IMG/VR virus record: IMGVR_UViG_2531839531_000012
Reading direction: 5' to 3' (one strand)
Length of the DNA: 31,354 nt
Origin: a virus
Taxonomy: Duplodnaviria > Heunggongvirae > Uroviricota > Caudoviricetes
Positions 1 to 11,032 of the stretch are shown piece by piece. Position numbers and translations under genes: made by a program. The notes below the pieces were generated by a model. It saw only the letters and a program-made list of their open reading frames with translations, made no database searches and had not been told where the DNA came from. Position 1 is the first letter of the stretch. Each line of letters opens with the position of its first letter.

Positions 1-837
1 TTTGACGATGAGGACAAAATCATCGGCATAGCGGCAGTACGCCACCGCGGGTTTCCACTGCCAGTTTTCTCTGACCGCCGTACTTCGGCCCCGTTGGATA
101 CTGTTATTCCAGTACCACCGATCTTTTCTGGCTTTCCCGCTCAGGTAGCGCTCATGCAGGTATTGATCGAACTCATTCAGCATGATGTTCGATAATAGCG
201 GCGATATAACACCGCCCTGTGGCACACCTTCACTGGCCGCCCGAAAGAGACCGACATCGATATGTCCCGCCTTGATGGTTTTCCACAGCAGAGTCATGAA
301 ACGTGCGTCACTGATCCTGCGGCGTACAGCCTTCATCAGCAGTCGATGATGTACGGTGTCGAAGTAACTGGACAGGTCGCCTTCAATCACCCAGCGTCCC
401 CGGGTTTCACCACAGTCTGTGAGCTGTAATTTCACCGTGCGGATAGCGTGGTGGACACTGCGCTCAGGCCGGAAGCCATATGAGAGTGTATGAAAATCAC
501 TCTCCCATTTCGGCTCCATCGCCATCAGCATGGCCCGCTGAACAATACGATCCCGCAACGCGGGGATACCCAGTGGTCGCAGTTTGCCGTTGCTTTTAGG
601 GATGTAAACCCGTCTGGCGGGCAAGGGCTGGTAGTGGCCTGAGAGTAATTCATCCCTGAGGATTTGCAGCTCAACAGCCAGTCTGGCCTGTAGCATTGTT
701 TTGTTCACGCCATCAACGCCGGGGGTATGGGCCCCCTTTGATGAAAGCGTGATCCGCGCCGCTTCAGCCAGCCATTCTGGTTTGTTATCAGACGCAGCAG
801 CCGTTGAATCCGTAGGGACGGATCGGTGACTGCCCAT
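1..837 (-). CDS. Group II intron reverse transcriptase/maturase, N-terminal 279 aa (3'-partial at window edge)
   Basis: My own minus-strand translation gives MGSHRS...KGAHTPGVDGVN...LRPLGIP...YGFRPERS...GDLSSYFDTV...PQGGVISPLLSNI...YADDFVLIVK, containing RT motifs including YADD. The ATG at 837 is the first in frame; an upstream GTG start is possible. Confidence 0.85.
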   Translation of the reverse strand, partial: MGSHRSVPTDSTAAASDNKPEWLAEAARITLSSKGAHTPGVDGVNKTMLQARLAVELQILRDELLSGHYQPLPARRVYIPKSNGKLRPLGIPALRDRIVQRAMLMAMEPKWESDFHTLSYGFRPERSVHHAIRTVKLQLTDCGETRGRWVIEGDLSSYFDTVHHRLLMKAVRRRISDARFMTLLWKTIKAGHIDVGLFRAASEGVPQGGVISPLLSNIMLNEFDQYLHERYLSGKARKDRWYWNNSIQRGRSTAVRENWQWKPAVAYCRYADDFVLIVK

Positions 838-1528
838 GTGGCAAGCTTGCGTTGCATTTCGCTGATTATCAAAGGTCTTCACCTCGTTAGGTCAGTTAAT
901 TCACGTCGCAAACACATTCAAACTGCTTCCCTTCGCCATGTAATGGGCTTTCCCCATCGCGGACTACTACGGAAGCTCCGCCAGCCAGCGCGTCATCGGA
1001 GCCATGCCCCCTTAACATCCGTCGCTGACCTTCCCCGGTTTACCTGCCTGGACTCAGGCATACTGAGGAGGCTGCCCGTCGCACTCTTTATCCTTGCTTG
1101 CCGCAAGTTGGCAGAAGTCAGCAACGCAAGCGTGATAGACGCTGCTGCCCCGGTGTTTCGCATACATGTCAAAACACCTTCGACCGGCAGTGCTTACGTA
1201 TTACTGCCAGTTCCTCCTGCACGGCCTGTCAGATCACGTAGGCCGTGGTGACGTTTTCAACCCACAGAGGCGGATTAACGGGTTCATGTTCTTCAGCCTT
1301 TCAGTACTTAACCTTGAGGATCATCTCGGCTTAGTGATCTCGCCTCAATCCCCGTTGTCAGCGGGTTACATCACCCTGCGGGCATGCCGCAGGTCACTGC
1401 CGCTCAGGTTCTCCACCGTCACACCCGGTGGGATTGTTGGGTTTCTCATCGTGAGTTACCGGTTCAATATTCCAGACAGACTCGCGGTTCATTTAAGCAT
1501 CCATGCCCGCCCTGAACTCCGGGCACAC
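1..1528 (-). mobile_element. Group II intron, 5' portion (RNA domains I-IV with intron-encoded protein ORF); 3' end lies beyond the window start
   Basis: Minus strand reads GTGTGCCC... immediately after IS orfB codons ...GDVTY (junction 1529|1528), a GUGYG-type 5' splice-site start. About 690 nt of structured non-coding RNA precede an RT ORF, the usual domain IV placement. Confidence 0.8.
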
Positions 1529-2218
<690 letters not shown>

Positions 2219-2290
2219 TATGGCACCTGTGTTGTTCTGAGGTGAGCATATCACCTCTGTTCAGGTGGCCAAATTCAGTAAACCACTTCA

Positions 2291-3071
2291 ATTTAAACAT
2301 CCTTCCTTGACGTGTGGATAGTTCGTCATAGAGCCATTTAGGAATCGGAACAGTTCTATTCTTCTTACCTTTGGTTTTGGTGAAGGTCAGCTTGTAGGGT
2401 GAGAGTTGAGCGCGTGTAAGCCTCTCGGCTTCTCCCCATCGTGCACCGGTTGCCAAACATACCTTAACAATCATCGTAAGATTTTCTTTGCCATATTGTT
2501 CACAGGCTCGGAACAGCTCCGGGAGCTGAGACAAAGTTAGCCAGGACATTTCTTTCTCAGCTTCTTTGAATACGCGAATCCCGTCCAGTGGATTGGGTAA
2601 ACTCCACTCCCCTAATCGTCGCAGTTCATTGAACACTGCTTCGAGGTATTGCTGCTCGCGATTGACAGTTATAGGTTTGGCGATCCACTTCGCCGGGTCT
2701 TTGTGATAGCCGTTGTCTATTTCGCCACGTAATCGACGGTCACGGTAATGAGCCCAATCTTTAGCGGTAAGACGAGATGCAATAGGGTCGCCCAACCCGT
2801 TACATACGATTTGAAGCTTTGCCAACCGCGACTTACTGGCTACTAACGCCTGACCGTGCAAATTGTGCCAAAGCTGAATAATCTCACTTAAGCGTCGGCG
2901 GTCTTCTTTCTTGCCGAGCCACGGCTTATCTTCACTCTCGCTTTTGGTAAATGCTTCGAATGCCTCGGCCTCACCTTTGGTATTGAATTGACGACGTATA
3001 CGCCGCCCTTCCCGGCCATTTGGATAAAGCTCACATAACCATTTACCATTTTTTTGCTTACTTACTGTCAT
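2291..3071 (-). pseudogene. int: P2/186-type tyrosine integrase, C-terminally truncated by the IS insertion
   Basis: N-terminal 260 aa (MTVSKQKNGKWLCELYPNGREGRRIRRQF...CLATGARWGEAERL...NRTVPIPKWLYDELSTRQGRMFK) has the P2 Int pattern. The segment normally carrying the catalytic H-x-x-R and Tyr is replaced by IS sequence from 2290 leftward. Confidence 0.8.
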
Positions 3072-3094
3072 AGCTACACCGAGGCCAAAAAATA

Positions 3095-3433
3095 TTATTC
3101 ACACAACGCTATAGCTTCACTGAAAATCGGGCCAATATCAGCGCTTTCTAATGAATCGTTAGGGTCTTTTTTAAGAACTTCTTTTAAATCTCGCCCTTCC
3201 ATTTTTCCTGATTTGACGGCGTTTTTAGCCATACCGCTTAGGGGGTATCGTTCATCCGTATCAATGTCATAAACAAAAACGTAGTGACTATTTACACAAG
3301 ATACCTTTGCATGCTCAAAGGTCAGCGGCCATTTATCACCAAAAGATTTAATATCAATCTCTTTGAACTTTTCAGCGGCAAAGGTTGAGGAAGAGAGTGC
3401 AATACAGATTATTCCAAATAAAAACTTTTTCAT
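3095..3433 (-). CDS. Small secreted protein with N-terminal signal peptide (possibly DUF2511/YebY-like); cargo gene between int and repressor
   Basis: 112 aa beginning MKKFLFGIICIALSSSTFAAE (hydrophobic signal peptide); two Cys in the mature part. AT-rich relative to the phage backbone. Confidence 0.6.
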   Translation of the reverse strand: MKKFLFGIICIALSSSTFAAEKFKEIDIKSFGDKWPLTFEHAKVSCVNSHYVFVYDIDTDERYPLSGMAKNAVKSGKMEGRDLKEVLKKDPNDSLESADIGPIFSEAIALCE

Positions 3434-3442
3434 TACTGCTCC

Positions 3443-4306
3443 TTAAACATGCTTTTCCAAGGTAAAGATAACTGCACCTGATGGTGTGATATCAGAGAGA
3501 TTACATTCAAACTCAGCAGACTTATTTGATAGCCTGACCTTTCCACCTGGCATTCTGATTACGTCAAAAATATCGAGCGCACCATCAATGCCAATAAGCC
3601 AACGACCATTTCCTATCTTTGAGTTAGAACAATCAACAAGCCAAGATGCGCCAACTCCATCAATAAAGACCAACTCATCAATGTTTGCAGGAACCATTGA
3701 AAGGTCTGGAGTCCAACGCCCAATATCTTTTAACTCACCAGCTTCAAGACGACATTTTCTTACTGTTAAGGCGTTAAGTGATTCACCCTCTTTGCTGTCT
3801 CGCATTTGGCCTTTTCCTGTAGATAGCCACTCTAACGATACGCCAGTATCGAGTGCGCAGGTCACAACCACATCGCCAGGGAAGAAGTCACGCCTAACCC
3901 AAGTGCTAATAGTACCGGAAGAAATACCTAATAAATCACCAAGCTCTTTTTGCATCGTAAAACCATAAGCATCCAGAATCCTACGCAAAACGGTTTTACC
4001 GCCGTTCGTCATAATCTCGTCATAAAGCTCTTTGCCTTTTAACTTGCAACCGACTCGCCCATGATTTGCATTTGCAAGCTCACCACTTACAAGCCAATTA
4101 ATATCAGCGCCCGTGTCAAGACAACACCTAACTATGATGTTGCCAGGTATTGCATCGCGTTGAACCCAGCCGCTAACGCTATGTTTCGCGATTCCTAGCA
4201 GGTCAGCCAAATCCTTTTGCATCTTGACGCCATAGGCTGACATTAAGCGCTCTAATACGCCATTTGACGCACCTATGCGCCACTGAACATCAAGCTCAGA
4301 ACTCAT
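3443..4306 (-). CDS. CI-like immunity repressor with two tandem 186-CI-type HTH domains and a C-terminal oligomerisation-like domain
   Basis: Two homologous segments (LERLMSAYGVKMQKDLADLLGIAKHSVSGWVQRDAIPG... and LRRILDAYGFTMQKELGDLLGISSGTISTWVRRDFFPG...). Position and orientation are those of the immunity repressor, divergent from the early operon. Confidence 0.7.
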   Translation of the reverse strand: MSSELDVQWRIGASNGVLERLMSAYGVKMQKDLADLLGIAKHSVSGWVQRDAIPGNIIVRCCLDTGADINWLVSGELANANHGRVGCKLKGKELYDEIMTNGGKTVLRRILDAYGFTMQKELGDLLGISSGTISTWVRRDFFPGDVVVTCALDTGVSLEWLSTGKGQMRDSKEGESLNALTVRKCRLEAGELKDIGRWTPDLSMVPANIDELVFIDGVGASWLVDCSNSKIGNGRWLIGIDGALDIFDVIRMPGGKVRLSNKSAEFECNLSDITPSGAVIFTLEKHV

Positions 4307-4335: not shown

Positions 4336-4364
4336 TTTACAGAAAACTTTTTACGATCTATAGT
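4336..4364 (+). promoter_or_regulatory. Putative early rightward promoter (TTTACA-17 bp-TATAGT)
   Basis: -35 TTTACA at 4336-4341 and -10 TATAGT at 4359-4364, 17-bp spacer, about 60 bp upstream of the first early gene. Direct repeats TACAGAtAAtTTT (4316) and TACAGAaAAcTTTT (4338) flank and overlap the -35. Confidence 0.5.
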
Positions 4365-4427: not shown

Positions 4428-4781
4428 ATGTCAGATGCAAAATCAATCCCGCTGCATGACGCACAAAACTTACAAAATCAAACTGTATTGCTAGACGCTG
4501 GTCAGTTCAATGCGCTTGTAACCATGATGCAGCTATCCATGCAAAACATGATTCGTACAGCGATGTTAGACACCATGTCAGTAAAAGACTTCGCTGCCGC
4601 CCGTGGCGTTAGCGAGCGTCTGGTCTGGCAATGGATTGATGAGGGCGTCCTTCTCAAAGCTCCCACCAAAGATGTTACCAGCAAAGAAAAAGCCGCTAAG
4701 CGTGGCCGCACCCTTATCAACGTCAAAGCATGGCGTGACAAACTGACCCAGCAAGCTATCGATTGCCGTTATATCAACTAA
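4428..4781 (+). CDS. HTH protein, first gene of the early operon; positional analog of Apl/Cox excisionase-regulator
   Basis: 117 aa. AGGAGA RBS 9 nt upstream. HTH-like segment MSVKDFAAARGVSERLVWQWIDEG. Function assigned by synteny only. Confidence 0.5.
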   Translation: MSDAKSIPLHDAQNLQNQTVLLDAGQFNALVTMMQLSMQNMIRTAMLDTMSVKDFAAARGVSERLVWQWIDEGVLLKAPTKDVTSKEKAAKRGRTLINVKAWRDKLTQQAIDCRYIN

Positions 4782-4831
4782 CAGTCATCGCTTAACTGAA
4801 CTTGATTTTGCAAGTTAAAGGGAGTTACAGC

Positions 4832-5341
4832 ATGTTAGATTTTCGTGTTTCGTCACATGCGCACTTTGACGAGGCCTGCAGAAAATTCGCAGCTACTCAT
4901 AACGTGAAAGAACTAGCGAATAAAGCCGGAATCAAGCCGCATACGCTTTACAACAAACTCAACCCAGAACAGCCGCACCAGTTAACGCCGCGTGAAATCT
5001 GGACGCTGACAGACTTGACCGAAGACTCGACCCTCGTCGATGGTTTTCTGGCGCAGATCCATTGTCTGCCATGCGTACCGGTCAACGAACTGGCAAAAGA
5101 GAAACTGCAATCCTACGTCATGCGCGCAATGAGTGAACTTGGCGAACTGGCAAGCGGTGCAGTTTCCGACGACCGCCTCACGCCAGCCAGAAAACAAAAC
5201 ATGATTGCTAGCGTAAATGCGGGGATTCGCATGTTGTCATTATCGGCAATGGCGCTGCATGCGCGTCTGCAAACTAATCCCGCTATGTCGAGCGTGGTCG
5301 ATACCATGAGCGGTATTGGTGCATCCTTCGGGTTGATTTGA
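4832..5341 (+). CDS. cII: CII-like lysogeny-establishment regulator (phage 186 CII type)
   Basis: 169 aa from the internal Met (MLDFRVSSHAHFDEACRKFAATHN...LNPEQPHQLTPREIWTLTDLTEDSTLVDGFLAQIHCLPCVP...). AAAGGGAG RBS. Resembles recalled 186 CII in sequence and length. Confidence 0.7.
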   Translation: MLDFRVSSHAHFDEACRKFAATHNVKELANKAGIKPHTLYNKLNPEQPHQLTPREIWTLTDLTEDSTLVDGFLAQIHCLPCVPVNELAKEKLQSYVMRAMSELGELASGAVSDDRLTPARKQNMIASVNAGIRMLSLSAMALHARLQTNPAMSSVVDTMSGIGASFGLI

Positions 5342-8851: not shown

Positions 8852-9085
8852 ATGAGAATCAATATCACGTTGGATAAAGAGCAAAAAATTAGTCAGGCAA
8901 CGTTGGATGCACTTGAGGCTGAGCTGTACCGCAATCTTCAACCTATTTACCCAAAGACTGCTATCCGCATTCGTAAGGGCTCAGCTAATGGCGTTGAGTT
9001 AAGCGGTTTGAAACTGGACGAAGATAAAAAACGAGTAATGGAAATCATGCAGCAGGTATGGGAGGACGATAGCTGGCTGCATTAA
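8852..9085 (+). CDS. DinI-family protein
   Basis: 77 aa (MRINITLDKEQKISQATLDALEAELYRNLQ...DEDKKRVMEIMQQVWEDDSWLH), collinear with recalled E. coli DinI (MRIEVT...DALAGEL...EDKQRISEILQETWE...W). Confidence 0.8.
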   Translation: MRINITLDKEQKISQATLDALEAELYRNLQPIYPKTAIRIRKGSANGVELSGLKLDEDKKRVMEIMQQVWEDDSWLH

Positions 9086-9606: not shown

Positions 9607-9706
9607 CGTATGTCCAATCTAAAGAATGGGGGCTGACATCCCATCATCAGATTTGTGTTATTTTAGTGCTACTCATTCGTCATTAGACATTGTAAGGGCA
9701 ATGTAT

Positions 9707-10417
9707 ATGAAACCAAGCACACACTGCGTTTATTGCGGTGTTCTCATGAATAAGGTTGAAAATCACCCCCACTGCCGCTCAGTTGAACACATGATTCCGC
9801 AAGTTTCAGTCTCCATTCATAGAACCAACGGCGAAGGTGATTTCTATGTATGCAAAAAGTGCAATGGCGATAAAAGCCGAATTGACGAGGTGTTAGGTGT
9901 CATTTGCCGCATGGTAGGAGAGCACTCAACAGGCAGCTTTGATGCTGTTAATAAATTCCATAATGCGCTTAAAAGAAAAGACTCGAAATTTCGTGAAGCA
10001 TTCCAGAGTGTTAGGCATACAAAAAAAGGTGCGCAGATAACATTACCCCTAAATGGTAGGGAGATTTACCAATACGGCACCTGGTTAGCCAAGGGAGTAT
10101 TTTTCTTAGAGTATGGGCAATTGTTGACTGTAGATAAATTAATTTGGATTAATATCGTTCGCCACGATGAAGTAATGGCTATTAAAGAAATGTATAGAAA
10201 TGAACGTGGCTCTGAGGCATTTGATGATTTATCGAAGAATAGCAACATTCCAAATATTAATGGCGAGTCGTTTCTGATTGTTGGCCAGGATGCCCGAGAA
10301 ATGTTTATTTGCTTCAATAGAGTAATGATGTTTCATATAAAGATACTGGATAGAACGTTTATTAATCAAAAAAAATGCAAAAAAGCCCTACTCAATCTGG
10401 AAAAAAGGGTTCGATAA
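9707..10417 (+). CDS. HNH nuclease-domain protein with an uncharacterised ~160-aa C-terminal domain; cargo gene in the A-to-cos variable region
   Basis: 236 aa from the Met with a TAAGGG RBS. N-terminus has C-x2-C (CVYCG), EHMIPQ and CKKCNGDK, an HNH-type arrangement. Distinctly AT-rich. Terminator-like hairpins on both sides. Confidence 0.7.
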   Translation: MKPSTHCVYCGVLMNKVENHPHCRSVEHMIPQVSVSIHRTNGEGDFYVCKKCNGDKSRIDEVLGVICRMVGEHSTGSFDAVNKFHNALKRKDSKFREAFQSVRHTKKGAQITLPLNGREIYQYGTWLAKGVFFLEYGQLLTVDKLIWINIVRHDEVMAIKEMYRNERGSEAFDDLSKNSNIPNINGESFLIVGQDAREMFICFNRVMMFHIKILDRTFINQKKCKKALLNLEKRVR

Positions 10418-10581: not shown

Positions 10582-10807
10582 TGCGCGCCAGCGGTGGTGC
10601 GTATTATTAAAAAATACCGTCTGAGTGCGTTGTGGTGGAGCTAACGAGAGCGTTGCTAGATCGTGGGAGTTCTGATGCGAACGTGGGGCTATGTTTTGTC
10701 TGTGGAGCGATGAGAGAGGGTGAGATCAGTCGCACAATTCTACGGCTGTGCTTCCGTTAATATCTTCATCGGTATGTCATGTTCCCTACCAACAGCTGGA
10801 GGCTTTA

Positions 10808-11032
10808 ATGGATAACTATCACATTACAAAAGATGGCGATAAGTGGAAGCTTCAAAAGGAAGGAAATGAGCGGCCTAGCAAGACTGCAACAACTAAGGCT
10901 GAGATCATCAAAGATACTCAAGATTACATGTCCAATAAGACTGGCTCAGTAAAAATTCACAAAGAGGATGGGAAGTTTCAGGAAGAGCGCACTTACCCTC
11001 GTAAAGCTGATCCTAAAAAGTCCAAAGGTTAA
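10808..11032 (+). CDS. Small DUF2188-like protein; cargo gene between cos and the portal gene
   Basis: 74 aa from the internal Met (MDNYHITKDGDKWKLQKEGNERPSKT...KIHKEDGKFQEERTYPRK). GGAGG RBS. AT-rich. Confidence 0.55.
   Translation: MDNYHITKDGDKWKLQKEGNERPSKTATTKAEIIKDTQDYMSNKTGSVKIHKEDGKFQEERTYPRKADPKKSKG

Follow-up and report, generated by a model that had tools for sequence, protein, structure and literature searches.

A DUF2511/YebY-family gene retained between the CI repressor and integrase genes of PSP3-type prophages

Two members of the DUF2511 protein family (Pfam PF10709) have been studied, YebY from Escherichia coli and MlbQ from the actinobacterium Microbispora. YebY is encoded by the third gene of the copper-uptake operon yobA-yebZ-yebY (AZY), downstream of the genes coding for CopC (yobA) and CopD (yebZ), and is a periplasmic protein, as shown experimentally, containing a disulfide bond between Cys48 and Cys113; it binds copper weakly, after reduction, and resembles MlbQ, a lipoprotein of lantibiotic self-resistance (PMC8689200). 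MlbQ, studied before YebY, was proposed to bind the lantibiotic NAI-107 and thereby to provide self-resistance (PMC8689200; PDB codes 2MVO and 6QFP). In addition, Hadley et al. noted in 2021 the occurrence of yebY homologues 'between XerD and the phage CI repressor' in Enterobacteriaceae (PMC8689200). Here we describe such a phage-borne gene, located at positions 3095..3433 on the minus strand of a 31,354-nucleotide stretch of virus DNA (Caudoviricetes; IMG/VR record IMGVR_UViG_2531839531_000012), hereafter the window. We regard the identity of this gene and the fold, export signal, and operon position proposed for it, taken jointly, as very probably correct, and discuss superinfection exclusion as a tentative function for its product.

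The closest phage counterparts comprise gp28 (orf28) of phage PSP3 and its homologues in Eganvirus SW9, SI22, SEN1, and Midge, in Klebsiella phage RCIP0057, and in Escherichia phage vB_EcoM-613R3, all representing the same gene (PHROG 2950), whose product is named 'DUF2511 domain-containing protein' in RefSeq. All these homologues are 112 residues long and 47-63% identical to the window protein, with PSP3 and SW9 displaying the same cI-DUF2511-int gene order; the window protein itself belongs to another allele type, which occurs chiefly in prophages of Klebsiella, E. coli, and Enterobacter. On the other hand, the cI gene of phage 186 abuts int with no DUF2511 gene in between, both being annotated as part of one lysogenic operon transcribed from pL and pE and ending at a terminator after orf69. 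In Vibrio phage K139 (P2 family, Longwoodvirus), the corresponding order is cI, orf2 (coding for a BRCT protein), glo, and int, and the annotation places what follows cI within the operon of the lysogenic promoter PL. Glo is annotated in GenBank as 'periplasmic protein; involved in phage exclusion' and is cited as a soluble periplasmic superinfection-exclusion protein (PMC3952083, a secondary citation), the annotation and this citation being the basis of all statements on Glo made here. The gene itself is already known, being present in RefSeq phages and assigned to its own PHROG, with its cI/recombinase context mentioned in the YebY structure paper (PMC8689200); the window contributes a further allele, from a prophage whose int gene is disrupted.

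The open reading frame (ORF) extends from an ATG at 3433-3431 to a TAA at 3097-3095 and encodes 112 amino acids. The protein matches the PF10709 profile with 53.4 bits, compared to a gathering cut-off of 21 (E-value 3.6e-14, profile positions 6-87 of 87), and matches PHROG 2950, a group of unknown function, from end to end (E-value 3e-47), whereas no NCBIfam model matched it. Among PDB sequences, E. coli YebY (PDB code 7N0J) is the only real match, with a phmmer E-value of 1e-6 over residues 32-111, a segment that covers the conserved tryptophan and both cysteines. A profile search against 1.84 billion cluster representatives disclosed 559 clusters of the DUF2511 family at E ≤0.001, in which the clade of the window protein forms a single cluster (2e-41), followed by the next best cluster at 5.5e-19. 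The only invariant columns in an alignment of 82 family sequences correspond to W35, C46, Y63, and C111, all present in the window protein, with W35, C46, and C111 aligned to Trp37, Cys48, and Cys113 of YebY.

The AlphaFold model calculated with the 82-sequence alignment has a predicted local distance difference test score (pLDDT) of 87.9, rising to ~95 over residues 21-90, with the low confidence confined to residues 1-20. The predicted strands (residues 22-27, 41-47, 51-56, and 61-64) and helices match the four-stranded antiparallel sheet packed by helices of the family. The structural comparison of the model with the PDB by Foldseek identifies YebY (7N0J), with a template modelling (TM) score of 0.90-0.94 and a root-mean-square deviation (rmsd) of 1.1 Å over 92 residues, and MlbQ (6QFP), with a TM score of 0.73 and an rmsd of 1.8-2.3 Å; besides these two proteins, no PDB match fell below E = 1, and the viral structure library BFVD returned no significant match (best E-value 0.1). 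An earlier model based on a shallow alignment of 16 sequences was poorer (pLDDT 71.5, TM score 0.6) and pointed in the same direction, and was replaced by the 82-sequence run. It is therefore strongly supported, on a modelled structure, that the product of the ORF is a small protein with the DUF2511/YebY fold. The original prediction, made from the letters of the DNA, had offered a DUF2511/YebY-like assignment and proposed a profile search as a check; the assignment is correct in the light of the Pfam match above cut-off, the PDB match to YebY, and the predicted fold.

The window protein and YebY share Pfam family, fold, signal peptide, conserved tryptophan, and cysteine pair, as well as a similar length (~113 residues in YebY), but their sequence identity is ~27%. 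Moreover, the window gene belongs to a phage lysogeny operon and not to a CopC/CopD neighborhood: its neighbors are cI and int in 55/55 related loci, which comprise 51 loci from IMG/VR, one locus from an Enterobacter genome, PSP3, SW9, and the window. A scan of genome contigs, which used narrow peptide patterns, returned one locus. As judged by sequence and gene context, the phage DUF2511 gene is a paralogue of yebY, not an orthologue.

The N-terminus of the protein displays the layout of a Sec signal peptide cleaved by signal peptidase I, MKKFLFGIICIALSSSTFA, predicted to span codons 1-19 (3377..3433, minus strand), according to a hand-written check of the n-, h-, and c-regions and of the -3/-1 positions. 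The n-region is basic (MKK), the hydrophobic core FLFGIICIALSS comprises 12 residues with a Kyte-Doolittle 9-mer maximum of 3.1, and the c-region S-T-F-A places the -3/-1 site just before A20-E-K, where cleavage is predicted. The same arrangement, a basic N-terminus followed by a hydrophobic core and ...A-x-A|(A)EK, is found in nearly all of the 34 alleles considered below, it coincides with a pLDDT of ~60 for residues 1-20, and the homologue YebY is periplasmic. No lipobox was found in the protein, since GIIC at residues 7-10 does not fit the motif and C10 is not conserved. The mature domain, codons 20-112 (3098..3376, minus strand), has a mass of ~10.5 kDa and a pI of ~5, carries the invariant W35, C46, Y63, and C111, and its 93 residues contain exactly two cysteines, C46 and C111, the third one, C10, lying inside the signal peptide. 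These features support the view of an exported, disulfide-bonded protein; because of the signal peptide and of two cysteines that form a stabilizing disulfide in YebY, the window protein should be a soluble periplasmic protein. The gene is also AT-rich, with a GC content of 37.5% compared to 52.7% for the window, 44% for cI, and 47% for int. Each element of the initial description, a 112-residue minus-strand ORF, AT-rich, with a signal peptide and two cysteines in the mature part, proved to be accurate, as far as the signal peptide is concerned by the hand-written check.

The gene is the middle one of three co-oriented genes. Upstream, the window encodes a PSP3-type CI immunity repressor of 287 residues (3443..4306, minus strand), composed of tandem 186-CI helix-turn-helix (HTH) domains (PF07022, two stretches, E-value 2e-52) and a CI C-terminal domain (PF16452, 4e-18), with the window cI being 84% identical to PSP3 cI. 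Downstream, 23 nucleotides after the DUF2511 stop codon, starts a P2-type integrase gene, of which the 5′ part, ~260 of 349 codons, is preserved (2300..3071, minus strand; Int_N at 4e-31 plus a partial catalytic domain) before being cut off by a mobile element. The sequence upstream of the ORF, gtTTAAGGAGcagtaATG, shows that the cI stop codon TAA (3445-3443) overlaps an AAGGAG ribosome-binding site located 5 nucleotides before the ATG. This junction, TAAGGAG (3439..3445, minus strand), is kept in nearly all alleles, either as TAAGGAG or as TAAGGGA, 4-5 nucleotides ahead of the ATG, and suggests a translational coupling of the DUF2511 gene to cI. The arrangement of cI, 8-9 nucleotides, a 339-nucleotide gene, 22-24 nucleotides, and int on one strand occurs in 50 of the 55 loci, the other five displaying the same order with one inserted gene. 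The co-orientation with the repressor, from which expression in the lysogen had originally been proposed, is thus borne out, cI, the DUF2511 gene, and int all lying on the minus strand. The accompanying remark that the slot between integrase and repressor is usually near-empty holds for phage 186, but not for the PSP3-like lineage, where the slot carries a DUF2511 gene in every locus compared; the gene is therefore typical of this lineage and not an oddity of the window.

Transcription of the DUF2511 gene together with cI in the lysogen is likely by analogy with the lysogenic operons of 186 and K139, and because the gaps of 9 and 23 nucleotides leave no room for further signals. On the opposite strand, a pR-like early lytic promoter, TTTACA-17-TATAGT (4336..4364, plus strand; 10 of 12 consensus matches), faces away from cI and marks the switch region, its placement with respect to cI and apl being that of pR in phage 186. 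A promoter-like site inside cI (3594-3567) that matches the consensus at 9 of 12 positions found no further support and was rejected. No conserved terminator was found on either side of the DUF2511 gene; the sole terminator-like hairpin, located inside the gene at 3303-3322, lacks conservation across the alleles, and hairpins of this kind are no more frequent than in shuffled sequence, so that it was rejected as well.

Three further observations concern the architecture of this unit. First, the CI of this lineage contains the 186-CI HTH domain twice in tandem and is 287 residues long, compared to 192 residues for the CI of 186, whereas a short single-HTH CI of 194 residues is paired with the DUF2511 gene at locus L060 of cluster P0019. 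Second, the motif GCCTCGGT (about 3075..3090 in the window, minus strand) is located ~7-10 nucleotides ahead of the int ATG in nearly all loci of standard layout among the 55, and in L033, which has an additional inserted gene, it also stands ahead of the DUF2511 start; it resembles a ribosome-binding sequence or one that marks a module boundary. Third, in L033, an IMG/VR prophage, the gene inserted between cI and the DUF2511 gene (4570..4974, plus strand) encodes a 134-residue protein that has an apparent signal peptide but matches no Pfam family.

The comparison of alleles shows that the ORF is a real, selected gene. The 55 loci encode 34 distinct proteins, all of exactly 112 residues (339 nucleotides in 55/55 loci), without insertions, deletions, or frameshifts, and the Nei-Gojobori ratio of nonsynonymous to synonymous substitution rates (dN/dS) is 0.10-0.30, compared to 0.02-0.08 for int. 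This range holds even between alleles that are only 46-64% identical, and the product is therefore under purifying selection; together with the family profile match and the fixed length, these data confirm the reality of the gene. The alleles fall into about five types that are 46-64% identical to one another, the full range among alleles being 46-100%, whereas the N-terminal 255 codons of the adjacent int are 90-99% identical across loci and cI varies independently. The presence of diverged alleles beside an int of such uniformity indicates that old alleles have recombined next to a conserved backbone, several ancient alleles being shuffled beside a nearly invariant integrase. Members of the window allele type, 84-94% identical, occur among proteins with the source names Klebsiella, E. 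coli, Enterobacter, and Salmonella; the window allele itself is 100% identical in one IMG/VR contig with the same truncated int, and its C-terminal third departs from the family consensus. As a separate observation, the allele of L053 and L054 carries a tryptophan in place of the invariant C-terminal cysteine (C111W); replacement of the C-terminal cysteine of YebY abolished expression (PMC8689200), and this allele may be a decaying copy.

The same data bear on the explanation that the gene has no function of its own and is either a copy of host yebY that was captured and is now decaying, or a spacer translated only to couple int expression to cI. The tight coupling geometry on both sides of the gene, the fact that phage 186 manages without it, and the C111W allele just described are compatible with this explanation; nevertheless, the exact length and the lack of frameshifts in 34 alleles, the dN/dS values that persist between diverged alleles, and the retention of the fold invariants and the signal peptide argue against it, as does the recurrence of the gene in several diverged P2-family lineages and its intact state in the window, where int is destroyed. 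We consider an absence of function highly improbable.

This recurrence extends beyond the PSP3 group, since, of the eight nearest DUF2511 clusters whose contexts were inspected, seven belong to lysogeny regions of the P2 family. The clusters display distinct contexts, including (i) a position between a 186-type CI of 194-291 residues and int in 186-like prophages (P0017, P0019, and P0020); (ii) a position after CI in a prophage remnant (P0018); (iii) P2-like phage control regions, adjoining gpD (P0021, P0024, and P0025); (iv) a position after a WYL+BRCT protein on a short contig (P0023); and (v) a true AZY context, after CopC and CopD, for the YebY-like P0033. In nine further IMG/VR loci of the P0018-P0020 type, a PSP3-type CI ends just upstream of the gene (seven loci) or the gene adjoins gpD (two loci). 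That the DUF2511 gene is accessory cargo is strongly supported, since it is absent from 186, kept under purifying selection in the PSP3 lineage, and present in related lineages of the P2 family. What is retained is a small, predicted periplasmic protein encoded in an operon that is probably expressed in the lysogen, and this in a widespread group of prophages of enterobacteria. Some of the related loci carry an additional gene directly after the DUF2511 gene, coding for a bPH_3+SHOCT protein of 166-168 residues (L029-L032, 5355..5861, plus strand; L056-L059, for example 4475..4975 in L056), which in L029-L032 sits ahead of int as a second cargo gene of the lysogeny slot and has no PADLOC match.

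The kinship with YebY raises the possibility that the phage protein, as a paralogue, mimics or competes with YebY and damps copper uptake through YebZ (CopD) and YobA (CopC), which would change the copper load of the lysogen and, in turn, the copper-dependent activation of MarR/mar. The predicted fold is that of YebY, the reduced copper accumulation observed when YebY is co-expressed with YebZ offers a precedent (PMC11923076), and the hosts E. coli, Klebsiella, Salmonella, and Enterobacter carry the AZY operon (PMC11923076). Furthermore, both paralogues meet in one genome: a degraded prophage with CI, DUF2511, and bPH_3+SHOCT genes (L056/L057, 1..4339; GCA_032164335.1, CP134152.1) lies ~3.5 kb from the chromosomal CopD-YebY pair, with an integrase fragment between the phage-type and host-type DUF2511 genes. 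However, the identity to YebY is low, the phage clade that includes the window protein is monophyletic and falls outside the AZY-linked clade in a neighbor-joining tree calculated without support values, and no CopC or CopD gene accompanies DUF2511 in any phage locus examined. In addition, unrelated cargo is found in this slot in other loci, K139 having an exclusion protein there, and the copper binding of YebY itself is weak and follows reduction (PMC8689200). Although it is the main competitor of the explanation favored below, we regard a role in copper uptake as improbable.

The resemblance to MlbQ leads to a different explanation, in which the protein would bind and sequester an envelope-targeting peptide, such as a bacteriocin, a microcin, or a host antimicrobial peptide, and provide a form of lysogenic conversion unrelated to phages. 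MlbQ and the window protein have in common the family, the fold, the position of the cysteine pair, an extracytoplasmic location, predicted for the window protein, and a proposed role as ligand binder, the model matching MlbQ with the TM score and rmsd given above, and the deep allelic diversity beside a conserved backbone would fit the recognition of variable ligands. The proposed binding of NAI-107 by MlbQ is the precedent. The two proteins also differ, since MlbQ is an actinobacterial lipoprotein with a long unstructured linker, encoded with ATP-binding cassette transporters in a lantibiotic cluster, and is ~21% identical to the window protein, whereas the latter has no lipobox and resides in a phage lysogeny module. 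No transporter or bacteriocin gene was seen in the flanks examined. Lantibiotics, moreover, do not normally reach the Gram-negative periplasm. An immunity function of this kind appears quite improbable.

The explanation that we favor, tentatively and at somewhat less than an even chance, is superinfection exclusion. According to this explanation, the DUF2511 gene would be transcribed with cI from the lysogenic promoter and its product made in the lysogen, where the protein, once in the periplasm, would bind a partner rather than catalyze a reaction. Binding is suggested by the two studied relatives, YebY damping YebZ-dependent copper uptake and MlbQ being a proposed lantibiotic binder. The protein would then protect the lysogen, and hence the prophage, from superinfecting phages after adsorption, as a functional analogue of Glo, the soluble periplasmic exclusion protein of K139 in the same slot. 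The parallel with Glo comprises a small size, a signal peptide, two cysteines, and a location between cI and int in a P2-family lysogenic operon, K139 differing by the additional orf2 between cI and glo; the window protein thus occupies the repressor-integrase slot and has a predicted export signal, with lysogenic expression likely by the analogy described. Exclusion is favored because of this replacement of Glo in the slot, and because the envelope proteins that temperate phages express in the lysogen commonly serve in exclusion. Examples of such exclusion proteins have been listed (PMC3952083).

The replacement can be followed in two high-GC P2-family contigs, L081 and L082 (2881..4575, plus strand), which display in succession an HTH repressor-like gene, a clear homologue of K139 orf2 (30% identity, E-value 2e-20), a DUF2511 gene (Pfam 3e-13), and a small HTH_31 gene; no integrase was found within the contig stretch examined. 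The orf2 homologue is directly followed by DUF2511, which thus takes the place of glo in this relative of K139. A comparison of K139 orf2 with the WYL+BRCT protein encoded ahead of P0023 showed a likeness at the level of domains only (BLASTP E-value 0.13), and this candidate was set aside. A homology between Glo and DUF2511 was likewise rejected: the two proteins have no Pfam family in common, and hhalign aligned nothing but their signal peptides, with a probability of 1%.

Several points weigh against superinfection exclusion. The link between Glo and DUF2511 is positional, without detectable homology, and no PADLOC defense-system model matched the 112-residue protein. The allele type does not track the cI allele or, as judged by source names, the host genus, and the gene-level dN/dS stays below 1 throughout. 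The expression in the lysogen is itself argued from the analogy with 186 and K139 and from the spacing of the genes, the consensus scan of the window having located no lysogenic promoter for the cI-DUF2511-int unit with confidence. Finally, the modulation of copper import is the only function demonstrated for a γ-proteobacterial member of the family (PMC11923076). The broader role named in the original prediction, a lysogenic-conversion or envelope-modifying factor, is plausible in view of the position and predicted location of the protein. What probability the explanations named here leave belongs to other functions.

A wider proposal appears possible but doubtful, namely that the DUF2511 proteins of P2-family lysogeny operons form an unrecognized family of soluble periplasmic superinfection-exclusion factors, non-homologous replacements of Glo, with each of the diverged alleles recognizing another of the components that incoming phages expose to the periplasm. 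The YebY/MlbQ fold would, in that case, represent a general periplasmic 'decoy/binder' module, and the phage proteins would provide a hint at the ligand of chromosomal YebY. Should the window protein be an exclusion or conversion factor, it would offer a defined and easily tested cargo gene for 186-type phages and a functional handle on the DUF2511 fold, including that of host YebY. The proteomics papers that mention DUF2511 contain no evidence for a phage-type protein, one peptide being of the chromosomal YebY type and the other report giving an accession only.

The window as a whole is a nearly complete prophage that belongs to the P2 family and, within it, to the 186/PSP3 type (genus Eganvirus), being 88-93% identical over ~80% of its length to phages 613R3, SW9, SEN1, PSP3, and Midge. 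The region near the DUF2511 gene comprises, besides the 287-residue CI and the pR-like promoter, a gene in the Apl/Cro position, a CII (CP76) gene, and the gpA replicase gene. Matches at the DNA level with annotated CI, DUF2511, and integrase are found in ~68 of 5,426 complete E. coli genomes. At the other end of the unit, an insertion sequence of the IS3 family, ISEc52, carrying a group II intron (ltrA), occupies 1..2299 of the window; it lies outside the gene unit but disrupts it by its insertion in int. The stretch from position 1 to about 2291-2303 is 99.5-99.8% identical to annotated E. coli copies of ISEc52. The interrupted integrase gene stretch extends over 2187..3071 (minus strand), with the insertion sequence covering 1 to ~2300 and the break falling after ~260 codons. 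The IMG/VR contig L005, 100% identical over cI and the DUF2511 gene, contains an int that matches residues 1-260 of PSP3 Int only. The prophage is probably locked in by the disruption of int, with cI and the DUF2511 gene left intact.

Further genes of the window lie between the replication gene A and the portal gene. A DinI-like protein (PF06183, E-value 7e-24) is encoded at 8852..9085 (plus strand), downstream of gene A, in what we take to be roughly the region where 186 carries its SOS-inducible tum gene. The variable region between gene A and the portal gene also includes an ORF of 263 residues (9626..10417, plus strand) without a Pfam match, whose residues ~20-95 gave weak PADLOC matches (best E-value 7.6e-5) to PtuB, the HNH nuclease of Septu; this ORF may be a stand-alone accessory or defense gene of the HNH type. 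Just ahead of the portal gene, a DUF2188 protein (E-value 3e-16) is encoded at 10748..11032 (plus strand).

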